Positions 4,983-21,946 of a stretch of DNA of 64,000 nt are shown here, one piece after another; positions within the stretch are counted from its first letter, which is position 1; every line of letters begins with the position of its first letter. Source of the stretch: Actinobacillus sp. (GTDB lineage: Bacteria > Pseudomonadota > Gammaproteobacteria > Enterobacterales > Pasteurellaceae); NCBI GenBank assembly GCA_020026075.1, contig JAHHQZ010000002.1, positions 12,567-76,566 of the forward strand. The letters run 5' to 3'. The position numbers and the translations under genes were made by a program. The notes below the pieces were generated by a model. That model was not told where the DNA came from. It was given only the letters and a program-made list of their open reading frames with translations, and did not search any database.

Positions 4983-5879
4983 CTATTCATCACGAATGCC
5001 TGATTTCGCACGTTCTAACACGAGTTTGGCACGTTCGATAATCGGTGAATCAATCATTTTGCCGTTAAGCGATGCAACGCCTGATCCTGCGGCTTCCGCT
5101 TCACGAGCGGCGTTGATAATTTGCTCGGCTTTCGCCACTTCTTGGGCGGTTGGGGCGAATAAATTATGCACCAACTCAATTTGGCGAGGATTGATTAAGG
5201 ATTTGCCGTCAAAGCCAAGCTGTTTAATTAAACTCGCCTCACGCAAGAACCCTTCTTCGTTGTTCACATCGGAGTAAACCGTGTCAAAGGCTTGTAAACC
5301 AGCAGCACGTGCGGCTTGTAGAATGGCGCAACGTGCGTAAAGCAATTCAATGCCCTCTGGCGAGCGTTCGGTTTTTAAATTGCGAACGTAATCTTCTGCG
5401 CCTAAGGCAATGCCAATTAAACGTGGCGATGCGATTGCGATGGCGTTCACTTGGGTGATGCCTAATGGCGATTCAATCGCTGCGAGCAATTTTGTGCTAC
5501 CGATGGCTCGACCGCAGGCTTTTTCAATGGCGGTGATGGCCTCGTCCATTGCAATCACGTCATCGGCAGTGTCCGTTTTCGGCATACGCACTACGTCCAC
5601 GCCAGCACGCACAACGGCGTTGAGATCCAACTCGCCAAATTGAGAATCCAACGGGTTCACACGCACCACTCGTTCAATGCCATATTTTTTATACAATGGC
5701 TGCTGCAAAGCGTGTGCCACCAGCAAACGGGCGCTGTCTTTTTCTTTCAAAGCGACAGAATCTTCCAAATCAAACATAATGGCATCAGGTTTGTAAATAA
5801 AACTGTTGCTCAACATTGCGGCGTTGGAACCCGGTACAAACAACATACTGCGGCGAAGTTTCATAGTAATTTCTCCCAT
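4983..5879 (-). CDS. citE: Citrate lyase beta subunit (citryl-CoA lyase)
   Basis: Contains [34 protein letters not shown], the HpcH/CitE signature. The true start may be the internal MKLRR at 5864. Confidence 0.9.
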
Positions 5880-6148
5880 TCTGGTTGTTCATCACTGGCT
5901 CGGAGCAAGGCGGCTTGCAAACGTGCTTCCAGCACGCAATCCAATGCGCCTTTGTCTTCTACGATCACTTGGCAATCTTGCACATTTAAGCGATCCAACA
6001 CTCGAATCACGGTGTCGTAAATCGCTTGCCCAAATTGCTTGCCTACGGAACTGTTGATTTCAATATCACGTCCGCTCGCAGGGGCGACTCGGATCATCGT
6101 ATCGCTTGATTCGAGTGTTCCTGCCATTGCCACTTGGCTAATTTTCAT
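5861..6148 (-). CDS. citD: Citrate lyase acyl carrier protein (gamma subunit)
   Basis: 95 aa; [23 protein letters not shown] matches the CitD N-terminus, including the prosthetic-group Ser. Confidence 0.9.
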
Positions 6149-7205
6149 CGGTTACTCCTTGTTCAGGTTTAAAAAATGGATAAATTTTTTGCAAATATTC
6201 CAGCGTAGACAACGGCACATTTTCCGCCACGATTTGCCAATCTTTTTCCGCTAAGGCCTTGCGTACCTTAGAGGCAGAAATAGCTTGTCCATTGGACGTT
6301 TGACGTGGAATTTCCACCACACTCAGGGCGGAATGTGCATCAGCTTGCGATAAAATAGCGTGCATTTTTTTATTGTAGTCCACCGTTAAATCACAATGAG
6401 GTTCCGTTCCCACAAAACGCACGCCGATACCGAGCGCTGGGGCGATATGTTCACGGAAAATGCTTAAATCAATCTCCGCCAAACAGGCCTCTTTCACGCC
6501 CTGCTCTTTCAAAAAATAACTTGGGAATGTGGCACGAGAAATTAAATAATCACTGCCCTCGTGCAACGTAATCTGCTGACTTAAATCCGCCACGCCTGCT
6601 TGCACCATCGCCAAACGATCGTGATACGAAAATTGTGAGCAATCCTCGCCCACCACAAACAAATGCAAATGATCACAGCGTTGCAACGCTTGTTCCACCA
6701 AATAACGATGTCCCAAAGTGAACGGGTTCGCATTCATCACAATCGCCCCAATGCGTTGCATTTGCGGAAATTTTTGCTGCAACATTTCACGTTGCTGCTG
6801 CCATTTTTCACATTGTTTCGCAAGGCGGGTGCGGCTATTTTCCAGCAACACCATATATGGCAAGGCGCTGGCGATTAAATAAAAACCGCAAGATTGGAAT
6901 AATTTTTGATATTCAGGCTTGGTGTAAACGAAAAGATGGGGGCGGTTTAATTGATACGCTTGCTCAGTCAATGTGGTAATCAGCGACAGTGCAACACCGC
7001 TGCCACGCAGGCTTTCGTCAATGGCCACGCATTTAATCACATTGCCGTGCAAACCACCGCAAGCAACGAGTGTTTCATCGGCATAAACCAGTGCAATGTA
7101 CTCCAAGTGGGGATCGAGCGTGAGATCATTTTTTTGTAAAAATTCGGTAAGTTTTATGCGGGATATTAACGTTAAACTTACATATTGAACACATTCAATT
7201 AACAT
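6138..7205 (-). CDS. citC: [Citrate (pro-3S)-lyase] ligase
   Basis: 355 aa, first gene of the operon. Has a nucleotidyltransferase motif ([14 protein letters not shown]). The last ~20 codons are encoded by a half copy of the palindromic element. Confidence 0.85.
6185..6208. repeat. Half palindromic element inside the citC 3' end
   Basis: TTTTTTGCAAATATTCCAGCGTAG; translated on the minus strand as ..TLEYLQKI.. Confidence 0.6.
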
Positions 7206-8908: not shown

Positions 8909-8938
8909 GCCCACGTTTTTACACGTGGGCGTTTTTTA
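8909..8938. terminator. Bidirectional rho-independent terminator between convergent citT and nudB
   Basis: GCCCACGT-loop-ACGTGGGC, followed by GTTTTTTATT on the plus strand and a T-rich run on the minus strand. Confidence 0.6.
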
Positions 8939-9373
8939 TTCAGGAATAAATTCCAAAATCGCCGCCGCATTATTCCACGATTTCGTCAAAGCCGCCGCTT
9001 GTTTTGGTGGGAGCCATTGAAAGGCGGTGTGTTCGGTGAGTTTTGGGGTAATGGTACAAGGCAAGGCGAGCAAAAACCAATGCTCCGTGCCAGTTTTTAC
9101 ATTGGGGGCATAGCGATGACGAAACTGCGGAAAAATATCAAACGCCACGCACTTTTGGCAATCCACGATGGTTAAATGTTCAGCAACGATGTCTACGCCG
9201 ATTTCTTCGTGCACTTCCCTCGCCGCCGCCATTGCAGGCGTTTCCCCCTGCTCCAACGAACCAGTCACAGACTGCCAAAAGGTTGCATCATCGTTGCGTT
9301 GCAACAACAGCACGTGGTTTGTTTGTTCATCATAAATCACCACGAGAACGGTGTGTGGTTTTTTGTATCGCAT
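8936..9373 (-). CDS. nudB: Dihydroneopterin triphosphate diphosphatase (Nudix)
   Basis: MRYKKPHTVLVVIYDEQTNHVLLLQRNDDATFWQSVTGSLEQGETPAMAAAREVHEEIG aligns closely with E. coli NudB. I take the start at 9373 (AAGGAA SD), because the longer tracked ORF (to 9457) runs into the CRISPR repeats. Confidence 0.85.
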   Translation of the reverse strand: MRYKKPHTVLVVIYDEQTNHVLLLQRNDDATFWQSVTGSLEQGETPAMAAAREVHEEIGVDIVAEHLTIVDCQKCVAFDIFPQFRHRYAPNVKTGTEHWFLLALPCTITPKLTEHTAFQWLPPKQAAALTKSWNNAAAILEFIPE

Positions 9374-9405
9374 TGTTTTCCTTAAATAAAATACCAGAGC
9401 TTTTC

Positions 9406-9878
9406 GTATTAATCCCTTTGGAACAGGGCGGTTCGTTTGAACGGTACAATTCCACAAGGGGAACTATACAACGTGGGTCTCAATCCCTTTGGTACAGGGC
9501 GGTTCGTTTGAACGGGCTAAAACATTTAGATTTCACGAAAGTAACGTAAGTCTCAATCCCTTTGGAACAGGGCGGTTCGTTTGAACACTAGTGGCATCGG
9601 CTACTTGAACGATATTCGTATGTCTCAATCCCTTTGGTACAGGGCAGTTCGTTTGAACTTCCAAACTCATTCCAAGTACCTAACGCAATCATGTCTCAAT
9701 CCCTTTGGAACAGGGCGGTTCGTTTGAACACGCACTTGAAACTTCCGATAAAAACAATCCATTAACACGTCTCAATCCCTTTGGAACAGGGCGGTTCGTT
9801 TGAACTACGGACAGCGTAGGGATGTAGATATTCAATGTCTAGTCTCAATCCCTTTGGAACAGGGCGGTTCGTTTGAAC
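9406..9878 (-). CRISPR. CRISPR array, 7 repeats of 37 nt and 6 spacers of 34-39 nt
   Basis: Repeats lie at 9406, 9477, 9550, 9622, 9693, 9769 and 9842 (each 37 nt). The plus-strand consensus is GTCTCAATCCCTTTGGAACAGGGCGGTTCGTTTGAAC. On the minus strand it ends in ATTGAGAC, a typical 8-nt crRNA 5'-tag source. The repeat at 9406 is degenerate (2 mismatches), those at 9477 and 9622 carry point variants, and the cas-proximal repeats are consensus. Confidence 0.95.
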
Positions 9879-10059
9879 AGCTTGGGGCTGAAATCGCTTG
9901 ATGAGCTTAGGCTGGCGAGTGCCAATGCCAATAAATGCTTTCGCTGAAAACGGGAGCGTCTTTTTAGTTTAAAAAACATTCGTTTGTTTACTTCTGTTTA
10001 ACATTATCTTAACAATTCACGCCATTAATGCGGTTCAAAACGGTGCGCATTATAAAATA
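9879..10059 (-). promoter_or_regulatory. Putative CRISPR leader
   Basis: 181 nt non-coding stretch between the cas2 stop and the consensus-quality first repeat. The degenerate repeat is at the opposite end of the array. Confidence 0.6.
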
Positions 10060-10338
10060 CTAGGCTGGAATAATCGACCAAAAAATGCCTTCTGGGTATA
10101 GCGGTTTACCGTAGAACGATGGTGCTTCACAGTGGTGCAGTGGGTAAATGCGCAAGTCGTCTTCTTTTAGGTTGAGTAGGCGCAATATTTTCTTTAAATA
10201 TTCCGACCAAGCCTTTTCGCTGCCCTCATATAAAAACACGCTGTACTGCAAGGCGGTGGCGAATTTACTGATTTCTCGGTGCAAACGCTGTAAACGTTTG
10301 GGGTTCGGTATGTCGTAGCCGATAAGGTAGCGTGGCAT
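10060..10338 (-). CDS. cas2: CRISPR-associated endoribonuclease Cas2 (copy A, array-proximal)
   Basis: 92 aa; MPRYLIGYDIPNPKRLQRLHREISKFATALQYSVFLYE.. shows the Cas2 ferredoxin-fold pattern. It lies directly downstream of cas1. Confidence 0.85.
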   Translation of the reverse strand: MPRYLIGYDIPNPKRLQRLHREISKFATALQYSVFLYEGSEKAWSEYLKKILRLLNLKEDDLRIYPLHHCEAPSFYGKPLYPEGIFWSIIPA

Positions 10339-10339
10339 T

Positions 10340-11386
10340 TTAAGCCTCCCAGTGAATTTGCTCGTTAAGTAGCGGTAGGGTTTCTAATGCTGGCGGTTCG
10401 CTTGGCGTAGTAAGGCAAGTGCGTGCCGTTGGGTCTCGCCGTTGTGGCAAGGCAGGCAAACCTTGTACATTTAGCTGGGTCAAAAGATGTGCCGTAAGTT
10501 TTTTCAATAAACTGCGCCAGTAAGGCATTTGTTGTTCGTAGGCGGCATAAAATTTTGCTCGTCCTGCTTTGCCGAGCAAACAGCCTTTTTCATTTTGGCT
10601 AAAATGTTCAGGCTGTAATATTTTTTGACGAAATAACCCCAACACCCAGCTGTCAACCAACGGTCGCAGAGGTTCAATTAGATCACACGCTAATGAATAG
10701 CGCCCAAAATCCACGCCGTGCAAAAAGCCGATGGCGGGGTCTAGCCCTGCGATGTAGGCATTGAGCGTGCATTCGCTGTATAGCAAGGTATAAGCGAGCG
10801 AAATGAGGGCGTTAAAAGGGTCTTTGGGCGGACGTCGGCTACGTTGGGCGAAGGCTAAACGAGGGGGCAAATAGCTACCAATGGCGGAAAAATAAGCTCT
10901 CGCCGCACTGCCTTCAATCCCTCGTAATTGAGCAAGGCTTTGGCATTGGTTGACTTGCCCTTGTGCCTGTTCAAGCTGAAAAGCCGTTCGGCGAAGTAAC
11001 GTGCTGGCTTTTTGGACGGCAAGATGGGTTATCCATTGTGTTTGAAAATATAATTTTTGAGCAATTAGCCCCTGTGCAATGTGCAGGCAAATCGTTTCAT
11101 CAAGCGATTGTGCGTATTGCGTGAGCCGTTTGGCGGCATCATTGTGGGGCGCTGGGAAGAAAATGCTCGGTTTGTGTTCTCGCCCCATTAAGGCGATAAC
11201 GCCAATATTTCGGCTCCCTAATTTGGCAAGTAAACGGCTTTCCAAACTGACATCGCCTTTTACAATCAGCCGTTCTAATGGCGCTAATGGCACGGTGGCG
11301 ATACGTTCGCCGTTTTCGTAACAAATCAGCACTTCCCCATTCAGTTTAAGTTCACATTTTTTGCGATCGATAAATAATGTAGCCAT
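10340..11386 (-). CDS. cas1: CRISPR-associated integrase Cas1
   Basis: 348 aa with Cas1 motifs: ..LRGIEGSAARAYF.., ..RRPPKDPFNALISLAYTLL.., ..DPAIGFLHG..SLACDLIEPLRPLVD. Confidence 0.95.
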   Translation of the reverse strand: MATLFIDRKKCELKLNGEVLICYENGERIATVPLAPLERLIVKGDVSLESRLLAKLGSRNIGVIALMGREHKPSIFFPAPHNDAAKRLTQYAQSLDETICLHIAQGLIAQKLYFQTQWITHLAVQKASTLLRRTAFQLEQAQGQVNQCQSLAQLRGIEGSAARAYFSAIGSYLPPRLAFAQRSRRPPKDPFNALISLAYTLLYSECTLNAYIAGLDPAIGFLHGVDFGRYSLACDLIEPLRPLVDSWVLGLFRQKILQPEHFSQNEKGCLLGKAGRAKFYAAYEQQMPYWRSLLKKLTAHLLTQLNVQGLPALPQRRDPTARTCLTTPSEPPALETLPLLNEQIHWEA

Positions 11387-11394
11387 CTTCTTCC

Positions 11395-11664
11395 CTATAT
11401 GATCATAAAAGGTAATTCCGCCAGCTTAGCTCGCCCAAAGAGTTGTGGCAACGCCGTATTTTTTAACGGAAAAATGAATAATCGGTCATCATCTTCCAGT
11501 AAACGATGTACGATCGTACGAAATCGTGCCAATTCCGCCGTTGTAAGCCAGCATTCATAAAACGATTTTTGCCCACGAATAGCGAATGCAGAGACTTTTT
11601 TATGCACCTGTCTTAGGCGTTTCGGATCAGCAATATCGTAGGCGATGAGGTATTTGTTACGCAT
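11395..11664 (-). CDS. cas2: Second Cas2-like protein (copy B, upstream of cas1)
   Basis: 89 aa; MRNKYLIAYDIADPKRLRQVHKKVSAFAIRGQKSFYECWLT...RLFIFPL has the same Cas2 pattern as copy A but is clearly divergent. Confidence 0.75.
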   Translation of the reverse strand: MRNKYLIAYDIADPKRLRQVHKKVSAFAIRGQKSFYECWLTTAELARFRTIVHRLLEDDDRLFIFPLKNTALPQLFGRAKLAELPFMII

Positions 11665-11677
11665 AATCTATACGCTA

Positions 11678-11764
11678 CTAATCATCAAGCAATGAGTTAA
11701 TTGCTTTTTGGGTTACAACAGTAGTAACAGTTACAGTCGCGCTAATTAAAAATGTTTCAAACAT
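11678..11764 (-). CDS. Candidate micro-ORF A (28 aa, Thr/Val-rich, hydrophobic)
   Basis: MFETFLISATVTVTTVVTQKAINSLLDD. A weak GGAAG SD lies 5 nt upstream and the ORF ends 13 nt before the cas2-B ATG, which has no SD of its own. It is a paralogue of micro-ORF B. Confidence 0.3.
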   Translation of the reverse strand: MFETFLISATVTVTTVVTQKAINSLLDD

Positions 11765-11809
11765 AATACTTCCATCTTATTAATCATCTGATAACTTTTC
11801 AGTAATGGT

Positions 11810-11866
11810 TTATGTGAAAACCATTACAGCTGTTGTAACAGCGGTTTTAAAAATAAGTTCAAACAT
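11810..11866 (-). CDS. Candidate micro-ORF B (18 aa)
   Basis: MFELIFKTAVTTAVMVFT with an AGGAG SD at 6-nt spacing. It shares MFE.., the T/V-rich core and flanking DNA (..TTCAAACAT..) with micro-ORF A. Confidence 0.3.
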   Translation of the reverse strand: MFELIFKTAVTTAVMVFT

Positions 11867-11904
11867 AAATTTCTCCTATTGTTAACGGTTACTTATGGGT
11901 TAAC

Positions 11905-11994
11905 CTATATCAGTATAGGCGGTAAATAAATGGGATCTTTCTCCAAAAGGTGACGTTCTGAACCATTCTTAATGATTGTCATAAAATCTTCCAT
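11905..11994 (-). CDS. Candidate micro-ORF C (29 aa)
   Basis: MEDFMTIIKNGSERHLLEKDPIYLPPILI with an AGGAG SD (12001-12005) at 6-nt spacing. It lies just downstream of a good sigma70-like promoter. Confidence 0.3.
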   Translation of the reverse strand: MEDFMTIIKNGSERHLLEKDPIYLPPILI

Positions 11995-12025
11995 TTTATT
12001 CTCCTATACTAATAAGAACTTCGGC

Positions 12026-12053
12026 ATCATTCATTTATTGAATGACTTGTCAA
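12026..12053 (-). promoter_or_regulatory. Candidate sigma70 promoter for the micro-ORF / cas2-cas1-cas2 / array unit
   Basis: On the minus strand: TTGACA (12053-12048), a 16-nt spacer, then AATGAT (12031-12026). Confidence 0.4.
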
Positions 12054-12095
12054 ACAATGCGTACATATTACTCGGTCAGTAAAAAATAGGTGAAT

Positions 12096-12111
12096 ACTGT
12101 AAATTTACAGT
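12096..12111. promoter_or_regulatory. Perfect 16-bp palindrome, candidate operator
   Basis: ACTGTAAATTTACAGT lies about 45 bp upstream of the candidate -35. It is not a LexA box: the CTGT..ACAG spacing is 6 rather than 8. Confidence 0.35.
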
Positions 12112-12251
12112 TTAGAAAACCATCAAAGTACAAATAACAAACAATAAACTCACTTTAAAAGCGTTTTTTGATTATTTCTTGATGTGGATATAGGGTTGGA
12201 TAAACGCATTTGGCAGCGGTGAATACTAGCTAAATGTGTTTATTATTGGGA

Positions 12252-13460
12252 TTAAGGTAGTATTTTATCTAATACTTTTTCTACCTGATGAGTGTCAATC
12301 GTAAGATTAGGTTCAAACATAAATTTATTGTTTTCATTCTTCTTCTCATCTGTAAATGGTAAAAACTTCATCGCATTATCAGAACTGATTTGGCACTTAT
12401 CTATAAGTTTTTCTTTGATTTTGGTTCTTGCACCATTCAAATTACTCATCAAAGTTGTTATACCTGAACTGTTTCCTTTATTATAAAGTTTTATGTATTC
12501 ATTAATTGTATCAGTCTTACCACCGAAAAAATCAACTAACTTACGAAAAGTTTCTACACTCTTCTCATAATTATCTTGTAATGCAAAATCCCAATTATTT
12601 TTTCTTGCATAGGCAATACTATACAAAAATGCATATTCCCTCGCTGACAGTTTAATTTCCACTCCATTAAATAGTACTATTCGATCTTCTGGATCATTAA
12701 GAAAGCAAATTGAAAATTTATCATCAATCCAGCTTTGTGTTTTCTTAACGGCCTCACTATAAGTTAGTTTTTGACTACAAAGCTTTTTAGGCAACCCAAT
12801 CCCTAAACGCACCCAAGGAATTTCTGCTAAAACAACTTTGGCATTTTGAGCATCAATTCTTTGACCTTTATCATTATTAATAAAATAAGAATAAGGTTTT
12901 GGATAATAGAACTCTCTTACATTTTCAAAAGTTTCATCAACCAGTACGTGAGAAAGAGTATCCTGTTTTCGTCCAAATAATGATAAAGCGTAGCCAACAA
13001 AGAATCCCATTGTCTTACGACCACCAGCAATAGAAACGTGCAAGGCAGAATCTTCATCACGGCATAATTCCCCTACTCGTTGCACAATTTGATCGGATGC
13101 GAATTGGTTTTCTTCAAGGGTACGAATATCATTTAATGGATTACCGTTGCAATCTTCAATAACTGTTATGGAGTTTTCATCAAAATGAATATGCTCAATT
13201 CCATATTGCTTACCGTAATCTTGGATAAATTGCTCAATAACATTGATCTTTTTATCTTTTCGTCCATCTACAATACCAAGTAAGCTCTCAAGTAATTTAT
13301 TTTTTCCTCGCTCGGTCGTTAATACTTGAATTTCAGTAATAGGAACATTTTTTTCTACCACTAATCCATAAAGTGTTTCTGTTACTACTGCAGGGGACAT
13401 TCCTGTTACGGTGAGTAAAATGTTTTTATTGTACGTCGTTTTCATCATTCGTTGATCCAT
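12252..13460 (-). CDS. CARF-domain protein (Cas_NE0113/TIGR02584-like) with a C-terminal OmpR/PhoB-like winged-helix domain
   Basis: N-terminus NILLTVTGMSPAVVTETLYGL...HVSIAGGRKTMGFFVGYALSL (CARF GGxKxM-type motif). C-terminus ..IKLSAREYAFLYSIAYAR...GARTKIKEKL resembles Trans_reg_C (LTxxEfxlL...hIxrLRkKL). The start may be M5 at 13448, which forms an ATGA overlap with the upstream stop. The gene is AT-rich. Confidence 0.65.
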   Translation of the reverse strand: MDQRMMKTTYNKNILLTVTGMSPAVVTETLYGLVVEKNVPITEIQVLTTERGKNKLLESLLGIVDGRKDKKINVIEQFIQDYGKQYGIEHIHFDENSITVIEDCNGNPLNDIRTLEENQFASDQIVQRVGELCRDEDSALHVSIAGGRKTMGFFVGYALSLFGRKQDTLSHVLVDETFENVREFYYPKPYSYFINNDKGQRIDAQNAKVVLAEIPWVRLGIGLPKKLCSQKLTYSEAVKKTQSWIDDKFSICFLNDPEDRIVLFNGVEIKLSAREYAFLYSIAYARKNNWDFALQDNYEKSVETFRKLVDFFGGKTDTINEYIKLYNKGNSSGITTLMSNLNGARTKIKEKLIDKCQISSDNAMKFLPFTDEKKNENNKFMFEPNLTIDTHQVEKVLDKILP

Positions 13461-14620
13461 TCTTTTAGAAGTGTTTTTAGACTTGCAAGTTGAGTTGCTT
13501 GAATAATTTTAATATTGTTATCTTTTGCACGATTCAATAAAGTTATTGGTAATTTAAAATATGAAACAAAAGCTAATTTTGTTTCTCTGCCGCAATGAGC
13601 TTTAATCGTTAACAACTTATTAATATAGTCTTTTGCATCATCTTTATTTTTAATTATACAAGCCTTACATTCAATTAAATGTAGTTTATTATTGGATAGA
13701 AATGCCACATCAACTTCATCATTCTTTCCTTGATTATCAGCACTTCTACAAGACTTTTGCTCTTGGTAATCATCACGACCTAGTTCCAAGCCACTGGCTA
13801 AATCTTGGATACCACCTTGCTCTTTATGAATTTCTTGTACAATATGGTAACAGTAATCTTCAAACCATACCCCATTTAGTAATCTCAAAACATCTCTATC
13901 TTTAAATTCTACTTTACCTTCCTTAAAGTTTATTAATCCTTCTTTATCTAAGCATTCAAATAAAGAACAAATTTCTTTTTGTTTTAGGGTGTTTTTATCG
14001 ACTTCTGCTTTAAGGCTATCTTTACAGCCCGATGCCACACCATTTAACACACGAATAAACTTTTCATTTTTTGAGTAGTTTTTAATAAAATTATTATACA
14101 AGTTAAATAAACCTTTTGAGGTGTTAGGCTTATTATCATTTAATAATTTATTACCATGTGCGGTTAAATATGCATTAAGCTTTAATTTAGAGTTTAACGT
14201 TAATGATTCAATTTTTTCTTTTTGAATCCATAATAATTGAGAATCTTGATTCAGATAGTAGAAAATATCTGATAACCCAGGAAAAACAGCATACATTGCT
14301 AAGGTCATTATTTTTGTTCCACCTGTTAGATTCACTGCTATTTTTTTATCTTCGTATTTCGTGGCTATATCAAATGCTGTATCCATTATATTTGACAGAT
14401 CATAAGCATCCTTAATATCAATAATCTCAATATTTTTGCGAGCAATCCCCTTTGTCATCAATGCATTCACAAGCCAATCAGCTTTTTTCTGCATATCCTT
14501 TGAAACTAGCAAAATAATATTTTTAGGATTAAATCTATCATCACACAACGGTAATAAATTGGGGGCAGGTTCGTGAGAAACTAAGCAAAGGTAGTAATCA
14601 AATTTTGGAAAGTTTTGCAT
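13445..14620 (-). CDS. can2: CARF plus PD-(D/E)xK nuclease effector, Can2/Card1 (DUF1887) family
   Basis: N-terminal CARF: YYLCLVSHEPAPNLLP...IAVNLTGGTKIMTLAMYAV. C-terminal nuclease motif: EVDVAFLSNNKLHLIECKA (D...ExK). I take the start at MQNFPKF (14620, AGGAG SD) rather than the tracked 14701. Confidence 0.75.
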   Translation of the reverse strand: MQNFPKFDYYLCLVSHEPAPNLLPLCDDRFNPKNIILLVSKDMQKKADWLVNALMTKGIARKNIEIIDIKDAYDLSNIMDTAFDIATKYEDKKIAVNLTGGTKIMTLAMYAVFPGLSDIFYYLNQDSQLLWIQKEKIESLTLNSKLKLNAYLTAHGNKLLNDNKPNTSKGLFNLYNNFIKNYSKNEKFIRVLNGVASGCKDSLKAEVDKNTLKQKEICSLFECLDKEGLINFKEGKVEFKDRDVLRLLNGVWFEDYCYHIVQEIHKEQGGIQDLASGLELGRDDYQEQKSCRSADNQGKNDEVDVAFLSNNKLHLIECKACIIKNKDDAKDYINKLLTIKAHCGRETKLAFVSYFKLPITLLNRAKDNNIKIIQATQLASLKTLLKEWINE

Positions 14621-14630
14621 AAAAAGCTCC

Positions 14631-14921
14631 TTATAACGCTTTAACAAAAAATGGTTGGATTTTGCAGTTTTGGGCGGTGAGTTGTTGGGTGGATAGCTCA
14701 ACTCCGCGTTGCATAAAACTGATGTTGATGGTTAAAAAGAAAAAATTAGCCCCTTTGGCACACACTTCGGCTGCTAAGTGAATAGGGAGCGTACCGATAA
14801 CGATATCCCCTGCATTTACTTGGTCAATGTCTAAATGTGCGACAAAGGTGTCAATCGCTAAATTTTGCTGTAATGCCCAGTCAATCGCACCTTGGTGACG
14901 AGAAACAAAAAATGTTGTCAT
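14631..14921 (-). CDS. csx16: Small CRISPR-associated protein, Csx16 (Cas_VVA1548) family
   Basis: 96 aa; MTTFFVSRHQGAIDWALQQ...IVIGTLPIHLAAEV. The size and N-terminal FVSRHxGAxxWA pattern match my recollection of the VVA1548 family. It has an AGGAG SD and sits between cas6 and can2. Confidence 0.6.
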   Translation of the reverse strand: MTTFFVSRHQGAIDWALQQNLAIDTFVAHLDIDQVNAGDIVIGTLPIHLAAEVCAKGANFFFLTINISFMQRGVELSTQQLTAQNCKIQPFFVKAL

Positions 14922-14972
14922 AAAAATCTCCTGCTATTCAATGTGGGGCTTACTCTATCACCAAGAAAATTA

Positions 14973-15899
14973 TTAGGCTTGTTCTGTAAATTTACATTGA
15001 TATTTTCCCAGCCCAAAGGTGGCATTTTTACCGCAATGTAGCCATTGACCGAGATACAATAACCGTTGCCACGCTGGTGAAAGCCCGTCAAATTGCCATT
15101 CACCCACAACGCCTCCGAGCGCCATTCGCTGTTTTTGACGACTGGAATATCTTGTCCAATCTTGCCAACGTAGGGTTTTCTTTTCCTGAATTTGAGCAAG
15201 TTCTGCTTTTAGTTCGGCGAAATCCAAATCCAAGGGGATTGCGTGAAATTCAGCCAACAGCGACACACGCTTAGCCAACGTGAGAAAAAAACGCTCCGCC
15301 GTTAAGGTTGTCGCTCGCAATGGTTTACCATTTTGTTGAATGCGCAATGGCGTTTCAATTTCAATGCTAACCTTGGCGGAAAGATTAGGCTTCAACGCCA
15401 CATCCGCATTTTCTAGTGGTGTTTTTGTCGCCAAAATATCCTGCCAGCCGCTGCTAGTTTGTTGTTCCAGCACACAAAGCACCGCTTGCCCTTTGCTCGC
15501 CCCAATGCGGTGAGCAAAGGCACGCTCGAATGCGTAGCAAATCAGCGGAAATTCTTTGATTAACTGCCCCACTAACACTAAGTGGAAAGTCAAAATTTCC
15601 CCTGCTTGATATTCTTGCTTACCCCAGCTTGGCGGTTCAATAATGTAGCCGTTAGGAATTTGGCTAAATTTCTGTAACGCGTGATTTTCAGGGGCTGGCG
15701 TTGTGAAAATTCGTGTAAAAGGGCAACTGCGATACAACGGGCATTCGTGGCAATCCTTGCGTTTCGTCATACAAGCCGTATGGCGCAGGGCTTGCCCAAA
15801 CGCCCCACGTAAGGTTGAGCCTGCGTAATCAGGCAGGCTAATCGGTGTGGTTACTCGAAAACTAAACCGAAAACGAGCAAAAGGTAGTGTGTCGTGCAT
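14973..15899 (-). CDS. cas6: CRISPR repeat endoribonuclease Cas6
   Basis: 308 aa RAMP with a C-terminal glycine-rich loop (..HCGKNATFGLGKY..). Its TAATG overlaps the csm5 stop. Confidence 0.8.
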   Translation of the reverse strand: MHDTLPFARFRFSFRVTTPISLPDYAGSTLRGAFGQALRHTACMTKRKDCHECPLYRSCPFTRIFTTPAPENHALQKFSQIPNGYIIEPPSWGKQEYQAGEILTFHLVLVGQLIKEFPLICYAFERAFAHRIGASKGQAVLCVLEQQTSSGWQDILATKTPLENADVALKPNLSAKVSIEIETPLRIQQNGKPLRATTLTAERFFLTLAKRVSLLAEFHAIPLDLDFAELKAELAQIQEKKTLRWQDWTRYSSRQKQRMALGGVVGEWQFDGLSPAWQRLLYLGQWLHCGKNATFGLGKYQCKFTEQA

Positions 15900-17470
15900 T
15901 AAATCCCTGCTTTTTCCTTAATTTTGTTGAGCGACTGCTTAAAGTCTTTGGCTTTATTTTTGAGCTTGCCAGCGGGCTTTTCAAAATCGGTGGCATTTGT
16001 CACTTTTTCATAAAAAATTCCAGCCTTGTCTGTTACCGCTTGATACAAGAAAGCACAATCTTCCGCCGACCAATTATCTTGCAACGTTCGTTCAATGAAA
16101 CCACAAAAGCCTTTAAAGACGATTGAATCTTCCGTTGAACGTTTTTTGTCCGCCGTTGACCAAGCGTTAAATTGTTCTTCCATTTCTTGTTGCAATGGCG
16201 AGAGTTTGCTTAGCCGTTCAGCCTCTGCTTGTTTTTCTTTGGCTTGTTTCGCCGCTTTTTCAACAAGTTCAGCCTGTCGTTGTTGAATTTCTCGCTGCTT
16301 AGCCTCTTGGAGCGCTTTTAATTGAGCAAAATCAACGCCTAGCTCAGCATTCTCTTGGCACCAAGTTTTCAATGCGGTGTTTTCACCTTGTGGATCAAGT
16401 TCAATTAACGCCCAGCCCAAAGGTTGTAGCCCTTTTGTAGAATCGGCAAACCACCACGTTGTTGGGCGTTCCTGATCGCCTGCTTTTTTTATCGCTATTT
16501 TAGCAATATCTTTTCCACGATAAATTTTGTTATCCGCCCCACATTTTCCTAAACGCACTAAGTAAGCATTCGGCATTGATTGAATTAAATTCACCAAGCT
16601 TTTCGCCCAAATCTGACGAGCGAGTCCAACCGTTTGCATTTCTTGCAACTCTTCCTTTAATAACTTAATGGAATAGTCGTGTAGGATTTTTAGCTCTTTG
16701 GCTAGGCTGGAATTTTGCGAAAAATTTTGACATTTTTTATCATCATAAATGGAAAGCTCTGCACCAAATGCTCGGTATTGGGCGGGTAAAAGGCATTCAC
16801 GGCGTATCGTTCCTTTAAAACTCCCCTCACCATTTTTGCGTTTTTTATTTTGCATATAGTAAAGCTTTGTGCCTTTATACGCCCCATTCGCCATAAAATC
16901 GCCAAAGGCTAAATGGTTATAGCGACTGGTTTGGAAACTCCCCACATACTCTTCTTTGGCTTGACTATCATCTTTTGCATAAAACGGATTATTACCTTTT
17001 TGCTGATGACAATAATCCAAATATGCCGTAACCAATGCGCCTTTCACGCTACTGGCAGGAATATAGGCTTGGTTTAGGTTTTTAGCGTAAGTGTGGCGCT
17101 CAACGTAAAGTTGATTAAAAACCTTTTCGCTACCTTGATGTTGTGCAGGTTTATCAACTTTATCCGCCCATTCGCTCGCAAAGCTCGAAGGTACAGCAAC
17201 GTAATAATCTGCAATGCCCAAATAGGCGTTACAGTATTCCTTATAAACTTTTTGGATTCTTAATAAATCTTGGCTTTTTACCGCATTATTGAGTTCAACA
17301 TATTGTTTATCGCCTTTTTCAAGCGGTAATTTGCTTGGATCAAAATGGGCAAGTACGTTTAACTTTGCATCAACGACATAATTGGTTGGTTCAAATTCTT
17401 CCCCTGCCCCAATATGAATGGGCGTAAGTGGGGTTAGCATAAGCCGATGGGTTTGTAAAAATGCGTCCAT
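15899..17470 (-). CDS. csm5: Csm5 (RAMP, Cas7-like) with a ~150-aa C-terminal extension
   Basis: N-terminus LTPLTPIHIGAGEEFEPTNYVV...SSVKGALVTAYLD is Csm5-like and the gene follows csm4. Residues from about 375 onward are a Lys/Glu/Gln-rich predicted coiled coil (LQEAKQREIQQRQAELVEKAAKQAKEKQAEAERL) plus an extra helical domain. Confidence 0.75.
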   Translation of the reverse strand: MDAFLQTHRLMLTPLTPIHIGAGEEFEPTNYVVDAKLNVLAHFDPSKLPLEKGDKQYVELNNAVKSQDLLRIQKVYKEYCNAYLGIADYYVAVPSSFASEWADKVDKPAQHQGSEKVFNQLYVERHTYAKNLNQAYIPASSVKGALVTAYLDYCHQQKGNNPFYAKDDSQAKEEYVGSFQTSRYNHLAFGDFMANGAYKGTKLYYMQNKKRKNGEGSFKGTIRRECLLPAQYRAFGAELSIYDDKKCQNFSQNSSLAKELKILHDYSIKLLKEELQEMQTVGLARQIWAKSLVNLIQSMPNAYLVRLGKCGADNKIYRGKDIAKIAIKKAGDQERPTTWWFADSTKGLQPLGWALIELDPQGENTALKTWCQENAELGVDFAQLKALQEAKQREIQQRQAELVEKAAKQAKEKQAEAERLSKLSPLQQEMEEQFNAWSTADKKRSTEDSIVFKGFCGFIERTLQDNWSAEDCAFLYQAVTDKAGIFYEKVTNATDFEKPAGKLKNKAKDFKQSLNKIKEKAGI

Positions 17471-18441
17471 TATTGTTCTCCCTTGTTAGAAGATAGCGTT
17501 GTGAAATCCACCTGCACTGGAATAACTGGTGCATAGCCTTGATGAACAATTTCTTTACCGAGCGTAGAAATATTATCCAAGCCATTCCCTACAAAATCGC
17601 GTGGTGTAAAAGCTTTTGGCGTTAGCAATGCCCCTGCTTTGGCGAGAATAATGGGCTTTTTGAACGGTTGCCCTTTTAAGGCGTAAGCATCGCCGTGTCG
17701 CCCAAAGCGTGTGATGAGCTGGTAAAAACTTTTCTCCGCCACAAAGTCATTATTCATCGGACAACAATTCGCCAATGTAATAAATGCGTTTGAAAATTCC
17801 GACCTAGGCCATTCGCCTACTGTTGCCATTTCCGTTACGGAAAATTTACCTAAACCTATACTGGCATCACGCCCATAGCCAAACGTACCAATATCTTGCA
17901 AAACCTGTTTCAACTGTTCGGCACTAAATTTGCTTTCATCAAGTAAGGCATAAATATCCAGTTGAATTTGTTGAGTTTTGGCATTTCCGTACCACGTTTG
18001 CCTTGTCATATAAGGGGCAAAGCCATCACCTGATGTGGTTGCTGTGGCACGGTTAATTTGATTATGCGCTTGTAGTTCAACGCATTGCCCAAAATCAGTA
18101 AGCTCACTATCAGCTTTTGCCAATTTCTGCCAATCGGCAAATGGCTTTTCAAGATCAGAAATCGCCAGCCATTTTTTCTTTTTCAAGGCTTTACGATCAG
18201 TCTCATCCCCTTGCGCCCATAGCAAAGAAGGCACCGTTGGCAAGGGAATATAGCCCGTTGGAAACGCATCCGATAGCACGAGAAATGGGCGGTTTTCCGT
18301 ATACGTTGCCAGCAATTCCGTCAATTTGCTTTCAGCAAAGCGATGACGAATCCCCCAGCAAACCTGCCCAAACAGCGTATCCCCCACTAATGGTGTGCCG
18401 AACGCACTTTCCAGCGTTAAGGTCATACGATACAGTTTCAT
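17470..18441 (-). CDS. csm4: Csm4 (RAMP, Cas5-like)
   Basis: 323 aa; MKLYRMTLTLESAFGTPLVGDTLFGQVCWGI...FLVLSDAFPTGYIPLP is the typical Csm4 N-terminus. Confidence 0.8.
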   Translation of the reverse strand: MKLYRMTLTLESAFGTPLVGDTLFGQVCWGIRHRFAESKLTELLATYTENRPFLVLSDAFPTGYIPLPTVPSLLWAQGDETDRKALKKKKWLAISDLEKPFADWQKLAKADSELTDFGQCVELQAHNQINRATATTSGDGFAPYMTRQTWYGNAKTQQIQLDIYALLDESKFSAEQLKQVLQDIGTFGYGRDASIGLGKFSVTEMATVGEWPRSEFSNAFITLANCCPMNNDFVAEKSFYQLITRFGRHGDAYALKGQPFKKPIILAKAGALLTPKAFTPRDFVGNGLDNISTLGKEIVHQGYAPVIPVQVDFTTLSSNKGEQ

Positions 18442-18453
18442 AACGCCCCCTTA

Positions 18454-19149
18454 TTATGCGAATGGATCAATAGTATCCAGCACTACGGTTGTTTGATCCT
18501 TTTTGAGATTCTCAAATTTGATTTTGCCATAACCACGAGATCCTGAACCGCCGAGGCTATCCAATTCAAGCAAGCGTAAACCTTTTAAGAACGTATCCAC
18601 TAATGCAGGATCATCACCTTCAAACTGGCGTAAAGTAACTTTGAAATTAAATTTCACACCTGCTGGCACACGCTCAATTTGGCGAGGGTGAGCGGCTGTT
18701 GCAGTAATGCGGTTAATGGTATTTTCACTTTTCGCCTCGGATAACAACAAAATGTCTTCGTTCGCTTTGTTTTTCCATTCTTCGGTTAATTGGCAATCCC
18801 AAAATGCTAAGCGAGTCGCCCAAAAATTTTGATCGCTATCCGCTAGGCTGCTATCACCGCTTACGCCGAATAATTGCAAAATCTGTTTCACCATTAGGTT
18901 ATGCTCATTTTTTTTCCAGTCTGTTAGGCTTAACGGCTGTTCTTTAACCGCACCACTGCGCCATTCCAATAAGCTACGAATTTTGCCCTTTAAGCTAGAA
19001 CCAGGGATGTAAGGGTGATGGGTAATTGGATTTTTCACCACTTGGCTGTCAATGCCGCCAATGTGCATTTCGCTGTCGCCTGTACCAATATGTAAGCCAC
19101 TTTCTAAGGTAATAACGCCTGTGATTTCGATAATTTTATTAAGTTTCAT
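18454..19149 (-). CDS. csm3: Csm3 (Cas7 backbone subunit)
   Basis: ..ITGVITLESGLHIGTG...IPGSSLKGKIRSLLEW.. is a canonical Csm3 motif. I take the start at MKLNKII (19149, AGGAG SD), because the tracked 19182 start overlaps csm2. Confidence 0.85.
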   Translation of the reverse strand: MKLNKIIEITGVITLESGLHIGTGDSEMHIGGIDSQVVKNPITHHPYIPGSSLKGKIRSLLEWRSGAVKEQPLSLTDWKKNEHNLMVKQILQLFGVSGDSSLADSDQNFWATRLAFWDCQLTEEWKNKANEDILLLSEAKSENTINRITATAAHPRQIERVPAGVKFNFKVTLRQFEGDDPALVDTFLKGLRLLELDSLGGSGSRGYGKIKFENLKKDQTTVVLDTIDPFA

Positions 19150-19165
19150 TGTTTGCTCCTTGTGC

Positions 19166-19561
19166 TTATTTTTTAGCTTCATAGTATTTGCAGTAACCCA
19201 TCACGGCCTCCATAAAAAGTTTTGCCATTTTGAGCGTTTTTACATCCTTGATTTGATCAATCACTCCATTAAAAATCTCTGTAAATTTTTCATTTACTAA
19301 CTTGCGAGCCTCTGCATAAGCCACTTTAGCTTTTAACATTTTGATGTAGATCTCGTTATCTTTGTAACTTTTATCAGAATCCGAACTTGTCGTAATTTTG
19401 TCGTGCCACATCACCAACTCATCATAAAACTTACGTAATTGTGTTGATTTATTGACGTTTTCTCCGCCACTGCGAATGTCATATGCGGCATTGTCTGCAA
19501 TATCTGAAAATAATTCAGGCTGTGGATCGGTAAATCTAATGTCGTTTGAATTAAAGCTCAT
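19166..19561 (-). CDS. csm2: Csm2 (type III-A small subunit, Cas11)
   Basis: 131 aa, helical; ..STQLRKFYDELV...LFMEAVMGYCKYY is a Csm2-like pattern. It sits between cas10 and csm3. Confidence 0.75.
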   Translation of the reverse strand: MSFNSNDIRFTDPQPELFSDIADNAAYDIRSGGENVNKSTQLRKFYDELVMWHDKITTSSDSDKSYKDNEIYIKMLKAKVAYAEARKLVNEKFTEIFNGVIDQIKDVKTLKMAKLFMEAVMGYCKYYEAKK

Positions 19562-19570
19562 AATGACCTC

Positions 19571-21935: not shown

Positions 21936-21946
21936 GTTTTGTAAAT

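Follow-up and report, generated by a model that had tools for sequence, protein, structure and literature searches.

Candidate micro-protein genes in the gap upstream of cas2-cas1-cas2 in a type III CRISPR locus

RESULTS

A gap holding a proposed control region and three candidate micro-protein genes

The 586-bp gap in front of cas2-cas1-cas2 is best read, in our opinion, as a control region with a short polycistron of genuine micro-protein genes behind it; this polycistron would open the adaptation (cas2-cas1-cas2) transcription unit, and its translated hydrophobic peptides would be co-regulated with the type III system. Our confidence in this reading is slightly above even, and it builds on observed features, namely the ORFs and their SD sequences, the conserved synteny, a peptide-level selection signature in relatives and the statistics of the operator. 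The window, that is, the whole stretch of DNA analysed, is 64 kb long, and the locus around the gap is a type III CRISPR locus. The flanks proved to be those of the original prediction, effector/accessory genes on one side and cas2-cas1-cas2 on the other, with an NE0113-family CARF gene directly upstream:

12252-13460, minus strand: NE0113-family CARF protein (TIGR02584, E = 1e-65)
11665-12251: the gap between the NE0113-family CARF gene and cas2, 586 nt
11395-11664, minus strand: cas2, the first gene of cas2-cas1-cas2, with its ATG at 11664 and without an SD
10340-11386, cas strand: cas1, the middle gene of cas2-cas1-cas2
10060-10338, cas strand: second cas2, the last gene of cas2-cas1-cas2

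The description of the gap as AT-rich holds against the window (31% versus 42% G+C), but the adjacent accessory genes are equally low (32%), and the composition really breaks at cas2-cas1-cas2, which has a G+C content of 47%. An Rfam search of the gap at a permissive threshold gave no match, sub-threshold CRISPR-DR matches being confined to the array. The best local alignment of the 37-nt CRISPR repeat with the gap scored 9, which is shuffle level (mean 8.4), and none of the six CRISPR spacers matched the gap. The whole locus had no match among plasmids by megablast, and canonical Pasteurellaceae uptake signal sequences were not enriched in the 64 kb. In some other loci the slot holds a gene of 118-126 aa; that the gap might be a decayed copy of it was rejected, as tblastn and tblastx revealed no trace.

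On the cas strand, the gap contains the three micro-ORFs at the positions first proposed, including the perfect AGGAG located 6 nt before both ORF C and ORF B:

11905-11994, minus strand: ORF C, 29 aa, MEDFMTIIKNGSERHLLEKDPIYLPPILI, first in the cluster
11995-12005, minus strand: SD for ORF C, AGGAG (12001-12005) plus 6-nt spacer
11810-11866, minus strand: ORF B, 18 aa, MFELIFKTAVTTAVMVFT
11867-11877, minus strand: SD for ORF B, AGGAG (11873-11877) plus 6-nt spacer
11678-11764, minus strand: ORF A, 28 aa, MFETFLISATVTVTTVVTQKAINSLLDD, with a weaker SD, GGAAG (11769-11773), 4 nt before its ATG

Between the TAG of ORF A and the ATG of the SD-less cas2 lie 13 nt (TAGCGTATAGATT), again in agreement with the original prediction. 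All three ORFs are thus preceded by an SD at 4-8 nt. When the 586-nt gap was shuffled 5000 times with dinucleotide composition preserved, the mean count of ORFs that reach 18 aa and have an AGGAG 4-9 nt ahead of the start was 0.006, and two or more were seen in none of the 5000 shuffles. The real gap has two ORFs with the perfect AGGAG-6 nt-ATG arrangement, both of them on the cas strand; the opposite strand has none. On an identical contig, ORF C is annotated as a gene.

ORFs A and B had been taken for a duplicated pair. Their similarity exceeds that of composition-preserving shuffles (p = 0.03), but with a BLOSUM62 local score of 29 it is modest on its own. Their MFE start (ATGTTTGAAC) was also compared with the reverse complement of the 5' end of the CRISPR repeat (GTTCAAAC), and a relation was rejected, the 8-mer match being at chance level. 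The hydrophobic stretches of both peptides are just 11-15 residues long, and their helical hydrophobic moments are low (0.07 for ORF A and 0.27 for ORF B). A helix of the phenol-soluble modulin (PSM) type was rejected on these values, which compare with 0.44-0.60 for PSM-alpha3 and delta-toxin. None of the micro-peptides has a sensor domain, Pfam and PADLOC scans of ten peptides returned no family, and we agree with the earlier view that they are not known Cas components. ORFs A and B were not found in a collection of 15 billion proteins. In tblastn against 50,697 phage records, ORF A and a 37-aa Haemophilus peptide gave no match, a result that the low-complexity filter may limit.

Micro-ORF clusters in the same slot of related type III-A loci

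The locus has no close relatives; only identical contigs carry the window DNA, and the Cas proteins of the related type III-A loci are ~50-55% identical to those of the window. A single-protein genome scan gave no match and was repeated in an alignment-based form. With the three ORFs as tblastn queries (E <= 1e-3), the only matches among 83 related loci were the identical contigs. Since peptides this short had no tblastn match, the loci were inspected by synteny. The gene order Card1 - NE0113 - [gap] - cas2-cas1-cas2 was kept in every Pasteurellaceae-type locus fetched. SD-preceded micro-ORFs were present in this slot, that is, on the cas strand downstream of the NE0113 CARF gene and ahead of the first cas2, in Phocoenobacter uteri, Haemophilus haemolyticus/influenzae-like populations, Conservatibacter, Caviibacterium, and Gallibacterium (loci L084, L087-L089, L098-L121, and L130-L134). 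Their arrangements were as follows:

L089, P. uteri: 5.7 tandem copies of a 244-bp unit, 98% identical to each other, encoding MFEQILVIVATEVVKKVLEELDEE (P1), MFELVSKAIEVVIIFKKDKD (P2), and MLDEILKVIIEEVLEKVKEKRD
L108-110 and L130-134: up to 9 ORFs in one conserved order
L098-107 and L114-121: a 37-aa single-TM gene in 1-4 copies
L084, L087, and L088: gaps with SD-preceded micro-ORFs

The 17 ORFs of P. uteri follow one another stop-on-SD, every stop codon overlapping the next TAAGGAG, and this cluster contained neither a CRISPR-repeat-like sequence nor a spacer match. The tandem copy number of the clusters varies between loci. H. haemolyticus also has a second 37-aa gene (SQH97106.1). Across ~1 Mb of loci, SD-preceded ORFs starting with MF[ED] were confined to this slot. 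In L108 and L134, intrinsic terminators bound the cluster, so that in these loci it forms a transcription unit of its own instead of simply leading cas2. Micro-ORFs are missing from about half of the related lineages, where the slot is empty or taken by the 118-126-aa gene; the peptides are therefore dispensable for type III function. In other lineages, proteins of 118-126 aa and of 274 aa stand in place of the micro-ORFs.

Selection was measured in the Haemophilus-type loci, the ORFs of the window being available as identical copies only. There, the pooled pN/pS of orthologues was 0.30, and differences at the three codon positions were distributed 53:27:86. For the beta2 family, second-position changes numbered 0 versus 34 at the third position. 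These patterns show purifying selection on the micro-ORF orthologues of these loci.

ORFs A and B can be linked to two of the peptide families: beta, with 24-28 aa, a hydrophobic core and a K-A-[VI]-[DN]-x-L-x-[DE]-[DE] tail, and gamma, beginning with MFEL. All pairwise p-values below refer to composition-preserving shuffles. The C-terminus of ORF A (KAINSLLDD) resembles KAVDSLMED of a 24-aa ORF (beta1) in L108 (p < 0.001), and the two stretches differ in codon use (Ser TCA versus AGC, Leu TTG versus CTA). ORF A is also similar to P. uteri P1 (p = 0.001), and ORF B to P. uteri P2 (p = 0.008) and to beta2 peptides (p = 0.007). An HMM built without window sequences ranked ORF A second and ORF B third of 3371 six-frame segments, with E-values of 0.23 and 2.9 that are not significant alone. 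The closest non-identical counterparts of the window's ORFs do not exceed ~45% identity. By peptide similarity, ORFs A and B fall within the beta or gamma families, an assignment based on alignments of 18-28 residues in which shared hydrophobic composition could explain part of the likeness. For ORF C the assignment is tentative: compared with first-position ORFs elsewhere, its best match had p = 0.007 (MCAKDFDKAYIFLPPMRCF) and the others were not significant, so that membership in the 'LPP' first-ORF family is possible from the alignment.

Besides membrane-active peptides and regulatory leaders, the original prediction had left room for coincidental frames, and coincidence is now unlikely because related loci hold conserved, selected SD micro-ORFs in the same slot. 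Looking for the frames in related type III loci thus yielded same-slot ORFs with peptide conservation and purifying selection, and A and B resemble two of their families. The other option of a Thr/Val-rich leader peptide lost ground: the homologues of A and B are Ala/Val/Ile-rich, the Thr/Val run being particular to the window, ORF A and cas2 are just 13 nt apart, and a scan found no terminator-like site on the cas strand between the promoter and cas2. An amino-acid-sensing attenuator of the thrL/ilvL type is not supported, on the same grounds. Compared with shuffles, the leader RNA is predicted to be more strongly structured (z = -3.2). In the predicted fold, the cas2 AUG sits in a small hairpin, and the SD of ORF C pairs with the 3' end of its own ORF (inverted repeat I5). 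An inverted repeat of 21 nt pairs ORF A with ORF B; it goes together with their Thr/Val richness because ACN and GTN codons are reverse complements; as the homologues are not Thr/Val-rich, this RNA pairing is not a conserved feature.

A palindrome shared by the gap and other operon boundaries

The upstream half of the gap carries a palindrome and a promoter-like sequence, which had no place in the original prediction:

12098-12109: perfect palindrome, copy 1, TGTAAATTTACA (extended CTGTAAATTTACAG), in the gap
14985-14996: palindrome copy 2, at the cas6 3' end, 60 nt upstream of csx16
21940-21951: palindrome copy 3, overlapping the aspS stop codon, ~115 nt upstream of the cas10 ATG
12026-12053, minus strand: sigma-70-like promoter TTGACA-16 nt-AATGAT, ~30 nt upstream of ORF C (10/12 in a consensus scan, a pattern match only)

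TGTAAATTTACA occurs in three exact copies in the 64 kb versus 0.01 expected. As each copy sits at an operon boundary of the CRISPR locus, the palindrome is probably the operator of a locus-specific regulator, as judged from its sequence and placement. In other genera, a co-varying motif, TTACAAATTTGTAA, is found at the cas6 3' end, and in most loci a further site precedes the first gap gene by 71-88 nt.

The NE0113 CARF protein is a candidate for the regulator that might bind these palindromes, a suggestion resting on structural modelling. By Foldseek, its AF2 model has the CARF fold and matches the CARF domain of Cad1, Crn1 ring nucleases, and Cam1. The C-terminal domain of ~160 aa (model pLDDT 82.6) had no Pfam match and no PDB sequence match. 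Its top Foldseek matches were almost all OmpR/PhoB/CadC DNA-binding domains, and they were weak (E = 0.3-4, TM 0.24-0.48).

DISCUSSION

According to our proposal, the cas strand would be laid out as palindromic operator, sigma-70-like promoter, ORFs C, B, and A, and cas2, and the operator in the gap would be common to the cas10 and csx16 promoter regions. Each ORF would use a ribosome-binding site of its own, and the SD-less cas2, 13 nt past the ORF A stop, is probably translated by termination-reinitiation coupling; such coupling between ORF A and cas2 is plausible in the window. ORFs A, B, and possibly C may represent unannotated families of hydrophobic or amphipathic peptides of 15-42 aa that occupy the same slot in Pasteurellaceae type III-A loci, with purifying selection presumably maintaining the families while tandem duplication expands and contracts them. 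The peptides would be made within the type III regulon, for which control by the upstream-encoded CARF protein is suggested, and would end up in the inner membrane or in association with it. At the membrane, they may form an accessory arm of the type III system, either a membrane-perturbing, dormancy-type output or a modulator. That the ORFs are translated in this organism and co-transcribed with cas2, that the peptides act at the membrane, and which protein is the regulator are points that we infer. It seems quite probable to us that ORFs A and B are true coding genes that have been conserved; a role for them in type III immunity as membrane-associated peptides is a tentative idea, held at somewhat less than even confidence. 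A more specific version is rather doubtful: the NE0113 CARF protein would sense cyclic oligoadenylate, act on the palindromic operator through its C-terminal winged-helix-like domain, and switch on membrane-active micro-peptides together with the adaptation genes, as a transcriptional output arm in Haemophilus and relatives.

The strongest competing account, which we still consider unlikely, treats the micro-ORFs as cis-acting uORFs in which the act of translation matters and not the product. Ribosomes leaving ORF A would reinitiate at cas2 and open its hairpin, and translation of the leader would protect the mRNA and set the level of adaptation proteins. The SD-less cas2 of the window, with its AUG in a predicted stem, the stop of ORF A 13 nt upstream, and no terminator between promoter and cas2, fits this well, and a small ORF ends 8-20 nt before cas2 in L088, L084, and L092 too. 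However, cas2 has a strong SD of its own (AAGGAG or AGGAG) in most related loci, and terminators split the cluster from cas2 in L108 and L134. One ORF would be enough for coupling, yet three to seventeen are present, and both the peptide-level conservation of several families in a fixed order and the third-position excess would go unexplained. Coupling of ORF A is compatible with our proposal, and both can hold. A reading as non-coding promoter or leader DNA with chance ORFs, whose apparent relatives would be AT-rich sequence rich in hydrophobic codons, is very improbable. It can draw on the HMM E-values above 0.1 for A and B, the restriction of tblastn matches at E <= 1e-3 to identical contigs, and the non-canonical SD of ORF A; the SD-ORF shuffle test, the HMM ranks obtained exactly in the syntenic slot, the pairwise p-values of 0.001-0.008 and the clear coding signature in relatives speak against it.

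If the products do matter, they could also belong to type I toxin-antitoxin-like or selfish addiction genes, membrane toxins silenced by antisense RNA or mRNA folding that are lodged at a module junction and stabilise the locus. The peptides resemble type I toxins in size (below 60 aa) and hydrophobicity, the tandem multi-copy layout and its copy-number polymorphism are in line with this, the predicted fold pairs the SD of ORF C with the ORF C 3' end, the gap sits where G+C content changes between modules, and C. difficile offers a precedent of type I toxins beside CRISPR arrays (PMC5961336). Nevertheless, antisense promoter-like and terminator-like sites in four loci were no commoner than in shuffles, and the scan found no antisense promoter-like site in the window gap. 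The clusters are compact sense-strand polycistrons with optimal and mostly exposed SDs, the 17 stop-on-SD ORFs of P. uteri are hard to square with tight silencing, several families are acidic amphipathic peptides and not transmembrane toxins, and the micro-ORFs share an operator with cas promoters. We regard such genes as distinctly improbable. Secreted or modified peptides (leaderless bacteriocins, PSM-like peptides or RiPP precursors) that reached a CRISPR locus by accident are the least probable of these accounts. Tandem SD-preceded genes of 18-25 aa with a common N-terminal MFE/MLD motif do recall PSM and multi-peptide leaderless bacteriocin operons, and the alpha-type peptides of other loci have high helical moments (0.36-0.55). 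But exporter, immunity, and modification genes are absent nearby, all neighbours being cas genes; the peptides are neutral to strongly anionic, in contrast to cationic bacteriocins and PSMs, and their position within type III loci is fixed across genera.

Our preferred reading, a control region with co-regulated micro-protein genes, would concern bacteria that live in humans and animals as commensals or pathogens (Haemophilus, Phocoenobacter, Gallibacterium, and others), in which an ordered micro-gene set at a fixed type III-A position combines purifying selection, rapid copy-number change and an operator common with cas promoters. Gene callers drop ORFs of fewer than 30 codons, and the micro-peptides were missed because most are below this cut-off. 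If the peptides act in immunity or in the control of spacer acquisition, they would be a new kind of type III component, and intergenic gaps of cas loci would merit systematic six-frame analysis. If the more specific output-arm version is true, they would form a new class of CRISPR ancillary effector of less than 45 aa without a sensor domain of its own. The carrier strains are cultivable and available from culture collections, so the question is directly testable; examples are H. haemolyticus (LS483458.1, locus at ~997-1005 kb) and P. uteri (UGTA01000001.1, ~390-399 kb). Surveys of CRISPR accessory genes used size cut-offs, such as the 100 aa of Shmakov et al. 2018 as cited in 10.1101/494179.

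Among known systems, the regulatory part alone recalls Csa3. Regulators of the Csa3 type bind cA4. Csa3a is a CARF-HTH regulator of cas and adaptation genes (PMC7515695), and the likeness lies in a locus-encoded CARF protein combined with palindromes before the adaptation genes and other cas operons. The protein here differs in being an NE0113-family CARF protein annotated as a ring nuclease, in which C-terminal DNA binding is hinted at by weak OmpR-type structural matches of the model. The layout recalls the phenol-soluble modulin alpha operon of Staphylococcus aureus, in which tandem genes for 20-25-aa peptides, each with an SD, are missed by gene callers. PSMs, which Pmt exports, are cationic or neutral. 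The tandem own-SD arrangement is alike and the alpha-type peptides are similarly amphipathic, whereas the phylum is different, PSMs have no link to CRISPR, and ORFs A and B of the window encode beta-branched hydrophobic peptides with a low helical moment.

Small hydrophobic peptides in multiple CRISPR-linked copies are common to the micro-ORFs and the type I toxin-antitoxin systems of C. difficile (PMC5961336). The latter lie beside arrays, often in prophages, encode peptides of ~50 aa, and have demonstrated antisense RNAs, whereas the micro-ORFs lie within the row of cas genes, read in the same direction and form polycistrons, with an antisense signal not above background. CreTA (PMC8501985, PMC9458426, PMC10097628) is likewise a small element with a strong-SD mini-ORF in an intergenic gap of a cas operon that annotation overlooked. 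However, it requires a creA in which one or two degenerate CRISPR repeats flank a pseudo-spacer beside the toxin, its toxin acts as RNA, a mini-ORF trapping tRNAs or other RNAs, and it is known for DNA-binding type I (and V) effectors, while the relatives of the micro-ORFs are selected at the peptide level, amino acids being conserved with synonymous divergence. A CreTA-like element was rejected for the window gap and for P. uteri, where repeat-like element and spacer match are absent. Closest in kind are the CRISPR-linked small protein families predicted in human microbiomes by Sberro et al. (10.1101/494179), for example #395508, a 28-aa transmembrane family near CRISPR genes in Veillonella. 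The present peptide sequences were not found in the portion of the supplements of that study considered here. Both cases concern unannotated hydrophobic or transmembrane peptides of <50 aa that adjoin cas genes and were recognised by comparative genomics. Family #395508, as described there, is a single Firmicutes family defined by lying within 10 genes of CRISPR genes, whereas the loci described here hold up to seven distinct families in an ordered polycistron at one fixed type III-A slot, with tandem amplification and a common operator.

Layout and composition of the type III locus

The cas genes lie on the minus strand between aspS (21947-23713) and nudB (8936-9457), and a 586-bp gap separates the NE0113 gene from the first cas2.

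Features of the locus (window positions)
19571-21829, minus, cas10, first in the cas gene order
after cas10, minus, csm2, csm3, csm4 and a long csm5-like gene
14973-15899, minus, cas6
14631-14921, minus, csx16
13445-14701, minus, Card1-type CARF nuclease
12252-13460, minus, NE0113-family CARF protein
11665-12251, gap
11905-11994, minus, ORF C
11810-11866, minus, ORF B
11678-11764, minus, ORF A
11395-11664, minus, first cas2
10340-11386, minus, cas1
10060-10338, minus, second cas2
about 9425-9879, CRISPR array of seven repeats, transcribed in the same direction as the cas genes

The G+C content across 10060-21829 is a mosaic: 42% for cas10-cas6, 31-32% for csx16-card1-NE0113 with the gap, and 47% for cas2-cas1-cas2. 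The gap itself (31%) is at the level of the accessory genes (32%), in contrast to the adaptation genes (47%). Two of the three copies of a palindrome described below flank the low-G+C accessory cassette, one on each side, which together with the mosaic suggests modular exchange of the cassette.

The Csm5-like protein (15899-17470) is unusually long (523 aa), and Csm5 models match only about its first 180 residues. The two Cas2 paralogues of cas2-cas1-cas2 (10060-11664) share only about 33% identity. Conservation of this gene arrangement reaches far outside Pasteurellaceae, to Accumulibacter, Sutterella and Sulfurisoma MAGs, and it is also found in L005, L006, L010, L018, L039, L076, L079, L081 and other related loci. 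The 13-mer GGCTGGAATTTTT, with one mismatch allowed, has 13 sites in the window against 0.4 expected (e.g., 16013, 21875, 23835, 28436, 32271, and 62932), and could represent a REP-like or uptake-signal-like element; neither the Hin nor the Apl canonical uptake signal sequence showed enrichment in the window.

Micro-ORFs in the gap

The three ORFs are exactly where and as the original prediction described them. Both ORF C and ORF B have AGGAG 6 nt ahead of the ATG, and ORF A has only GGAAG, 4 nt ahead; its stop lies 13 nt before the ATG of cas2, which has no Shine-Dalgarno sequence (SD). When the gap was shuffled 5000 times with dinucleotide frequencies preserved, ORFs of 18 aa or more preceded by AGGAG occurred at a mean of 0.006 per shuffle and never two together (0/5000), and the opposite strand of the gap contains no AGGAG. 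The proposed paralogy of A and B received modest support from their direct comparison (p = 0.03).

The final 22 codons of the NE0113 gene (12252-12320) also open with MFE, and the DNA there, ATGTTTGAACCTAATCTTA, matches the start of ORF B at 84% identity over 19 nt. Chance may explain this likeness, or a micro-ORF may have been absorbed there and left a trace.

Gap contents in related loci

The window DNA is carried by only three short metagenomic contigs, all identical to it, and AspS and TorA of the organism had no relative of at least 90% identity among 15 billion proteins. For the NE0113 protein and Cas1, the nearest homologues are from Pasteurellaceae and 50-60% identical, a distance at which intergenic DNA gave no alignment. 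Since no close relative was found, distant comparison was needed, and about 200 loci were fetched. The original prediction had proposed tblastn or synteny comparison as a check: tblastn with the three peptides gave no match in related loci, and synteny revealed micro-ORF clusters in the same slot. ORFs A and B and the other shorter peptides are absent from the protein collection, and members of 37-42 aa have database entries, all labelled 'uncharacterised' or 'hypothetical'.

Pasteurellaceae-type loci keep a fixed order, Card1, NE0113, gap, cas2-cas1-cas2, but differ in what the gap contains. The gap of Phocoenobacter uteri (L089) holds a 38-aa transmembrane ORF and then 5.7 copies of a 244-bp unit (98% identity) coding for MFEQILVIVATEVVKKVLEELDEE, MFELVSKAIEVVIIFKKDKD and MLDEILKVIIEEVLEKVKEKRD, with every stop codon overlapped by the next TAAGGAG. 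Two CRISPR arrays (982-1798 and 5525-6338) accompany this locus, of which one separates the NE0113 gene from the micro-ORF array and the other follows the adaptation genes; no match to the micro-ORF region was found among their 22 spacers. Haemophilus-type metagenomic populations (L108-110, L130-134) have up to nine SD-preceded ORFs in a conserved order.

Order of peptides in Haemophilus-type gaps
1, 'LPP' peptide, MTTSEYINHFALLPPMRF
2, amphipathic alpha peptide, MLDVIIRIAEAVLEELKKK
3, 15-mer rich in Thr/Ile
4, beta1, MWGLIAEAVVVAAVTKAVDSLMED
5, beta2, MFERLLVVAIATAIARAVENASKD
6, 37-aa single-pass protein, one to three copies, MEILKDLTKEHAVIAGIALVAVMAFNAMLQYEKMKQE
7, delta peptide of 16-18 aa, MEYINIFLDAWYKTHN, followed by cas2

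Micro-ORF copy number varies among contigs with identical NE0113 proteins. H. haemolyticus LS483458.1 carries the 37-aa gene twice in nearly identical form (SQH97106.1 and SQH97116.1), with protein ids ten apart; one copy is in the gap and the other, judged by gene count, should be just upstream of cas10. One to three micro-ORFs were found in Conservatibacter, Caviibacterium and Gallibacterium gaps, and single SD-preceded ORFs rich in Ala/Ile/Val in L157, L183 and L192, among loci with Cas1 46-47% identical.

Aggregatibacter segnis-like, Rodentibacter, Testudinibacter and L086 loci have no micro-ORFs and instead carry a gene of 118-126 aa, with or without one of 274 aa. The 118-126-aa protein, which occupies the slot at L004 10443-11688, L006 7342-7722, L085 2186-3448 and L086 3267-3647, in some cases together with the 274-aa protein, is 53-70% identical between genera and matched no Pfam or PADLOC family. 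In Bisgaardia and the L092 population the gap is nearly empty. Some loci without hydrophobic peptides have an acidic, aromatic-rich ORF of 27-45 aa (MVLEEVMQYLENQQWYWDEESYQYFPY; MGDILEEIQQIIF...; L092-L097 4796-4879, L005 7501-7638), whose stop lies 13 nt ahead of cas2 or which overlaps the cas2 start.

Coding evidence and family membership

For orthologous ORFs of three Haemophilus-type lineages, differences at codon positions 1:2:3 were 53:27:86 and the pooled pN/pS was 0.30; beta2 had 0 second-position against 34 third-position changes. Judged by these codon patterns, the micro-ORFs of the relatives are under selection as peptides. Across the fetched loci, about 1 Mb in total, ORFs that start with MF[ED] behind an SD are confined to the NE0113-cas2 slot. 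The L108 and L134 clusters are bounded by intrinsic terminators, one past the NE0113 gene and one ahead of the delta ORF and cas2, and thus form a unit of their own, more than a cas2 leader.

ORF A resembles L108 beta1 (LISATVTVTTVVTQKAINSLLDD / LIAEAVVVAAVT--KAVDSLMED; p < 0.001, composition-preserving shuffles) and the P. uteri peptide P1 (p = 0.001). The tail common to ORF A and beta1 is coded differently (Ser TCA vs AGC, Leu TTG vs CTA). ORF B resembles P. uteri MFELVSKAIEVVIIF (p = 0.008) and beta2 (p = 0.007). A beta-family HMM made without window sequences placed ORFs A and B at ranks 2 and 3 among the 3371 segments that six-frame translation of the 64-kb window yields; by themselves the E-values (0.23 and 2.9) are too weak, but both hits are inside the expected 586 bp on the expected strand. 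ORFs A and B are likely to be real conserved genes. ORF C opens its cluster and terminates in YLPPILI, which recalls the 'LPP' ORFs found in first position elsewhere; its assignment to that family is tentative because a single comparison was nominally significant (p = 0.007).

Palindrome, putative promoter and candidate regulator

A perfect palindrome, TGTAAATTTACA, lies about 115 nt ahead of ORF C. The 64-kb window has exactly three copies against 0.01 expected, and no shuffle of 100 had more than one.

Copies of TGTAAATTTACA and the putative gap promoter
12098-12109, gap
14985-14996, cas6 3' end, 60 nt before csx16
21940-21951, across the aspS stop codon, about 115 nt before cas10
12053-12026, sigma-70-like promoter TTGACA-16-AATGAT, between palindrome and ORF C

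The type III locus has three operon boundaries, and each coincides with one of the copies. A different palindrome, TTACAAATTTGTAA, is present in other genera at the cas6 3' end and in the NE0113-cas2 gap. In most loci its gap copy is 71-88 nt ahead of the first gap gene, whether micro-ORF or 126-aa gene; the 118-126-aa gene of L086 likewise sits behind a motif of this type, and larger clusters contain additional copies. Because the motif changes between lineages while its positions are kept, the palindrome is probably a locus-specific operator, a predicted role that would tie the gap cargo to regulation of the type III genes.

No terminator-like site was found between the promoter and cas2. 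Compared with shuffled sequences, the predicted 381-nt leader has more structure (z = -3.2); in the predicted fold the ORF C SD pairs with the ORF C 3' end, and the cas2 AUG is within a small hairpin.

The NE0113 protein is annotated as a ring nuclease. Its N-terminal part has a CARF fold with Foldseek matches to the Cad1 CARF domain, Crn1 ring nucleases and Cam1, and an extra C-terminal domain of ~160 aa (12252-12728) had no Pfam or PDB sequence match. Modelled alone (pLDDT 82.6), this domain gave best structural matches that were almost all OmpR/PhoB/CadC-type DNA-binding domains, although weak (E = 0.3-4). The protein may be a CARF-linked transcription factor, a lead rather than a result.

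Possible function of the peptides

The ORFs, their SDs, the conserved synteny, the peptide-level selection in relatives, the copy-number polymorphism and the shared palindromes are established directly, and on them we build a model. The gap promoter would transcribe the cluster under control of the palindrome, and in the window ribosomes ending at the ORF A stop would reinitiate at cas2. Because the peptides are hydrophobic or amphipathic, the membrane could be their site of action, where they would serve the type III system as an accessory component, a role that we put forward tentatively, as possible.

We consider it unlikely that the micro-ORFs are purely cis-acting upstream ORFs: cas2 has its own SD in most relatives, and coupling leaves several conserved families unexplained. 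Type I-toxin-like addiction genes are more doubtful still, as the antisense signal was no higher than background. That the micro-ORFs arose by chance is very improbable, and that they encode secreted peptides is the least probable of these readings.

Comparison with known systems

The Thr/Val leader-peptide (attenuator) idea of the original prediction was dropped, both defining features of attenuators being absent. Like CreTA, the cluster is a hidden element in a cas-operon gap, but the defining repeat-like creA was not found here. ORFs A and B do not reach the amphipathicity of PSM. The nearest precedents, namely the CRISPR-linked small transmembrane families of Sberro et al. and the type I toxins that adjoin CRISPR arrays in C. 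difficile (PMC5961336), are purely genomic. The gap cluster belongs to the loosely defined kind of small hydrophobic proteins linked to CRISPR-cas, and is distinguished by multiple families in an ordered polycistron, by its fixed slot in type III-A loci, and by its tandem amplification and shared putative operator.
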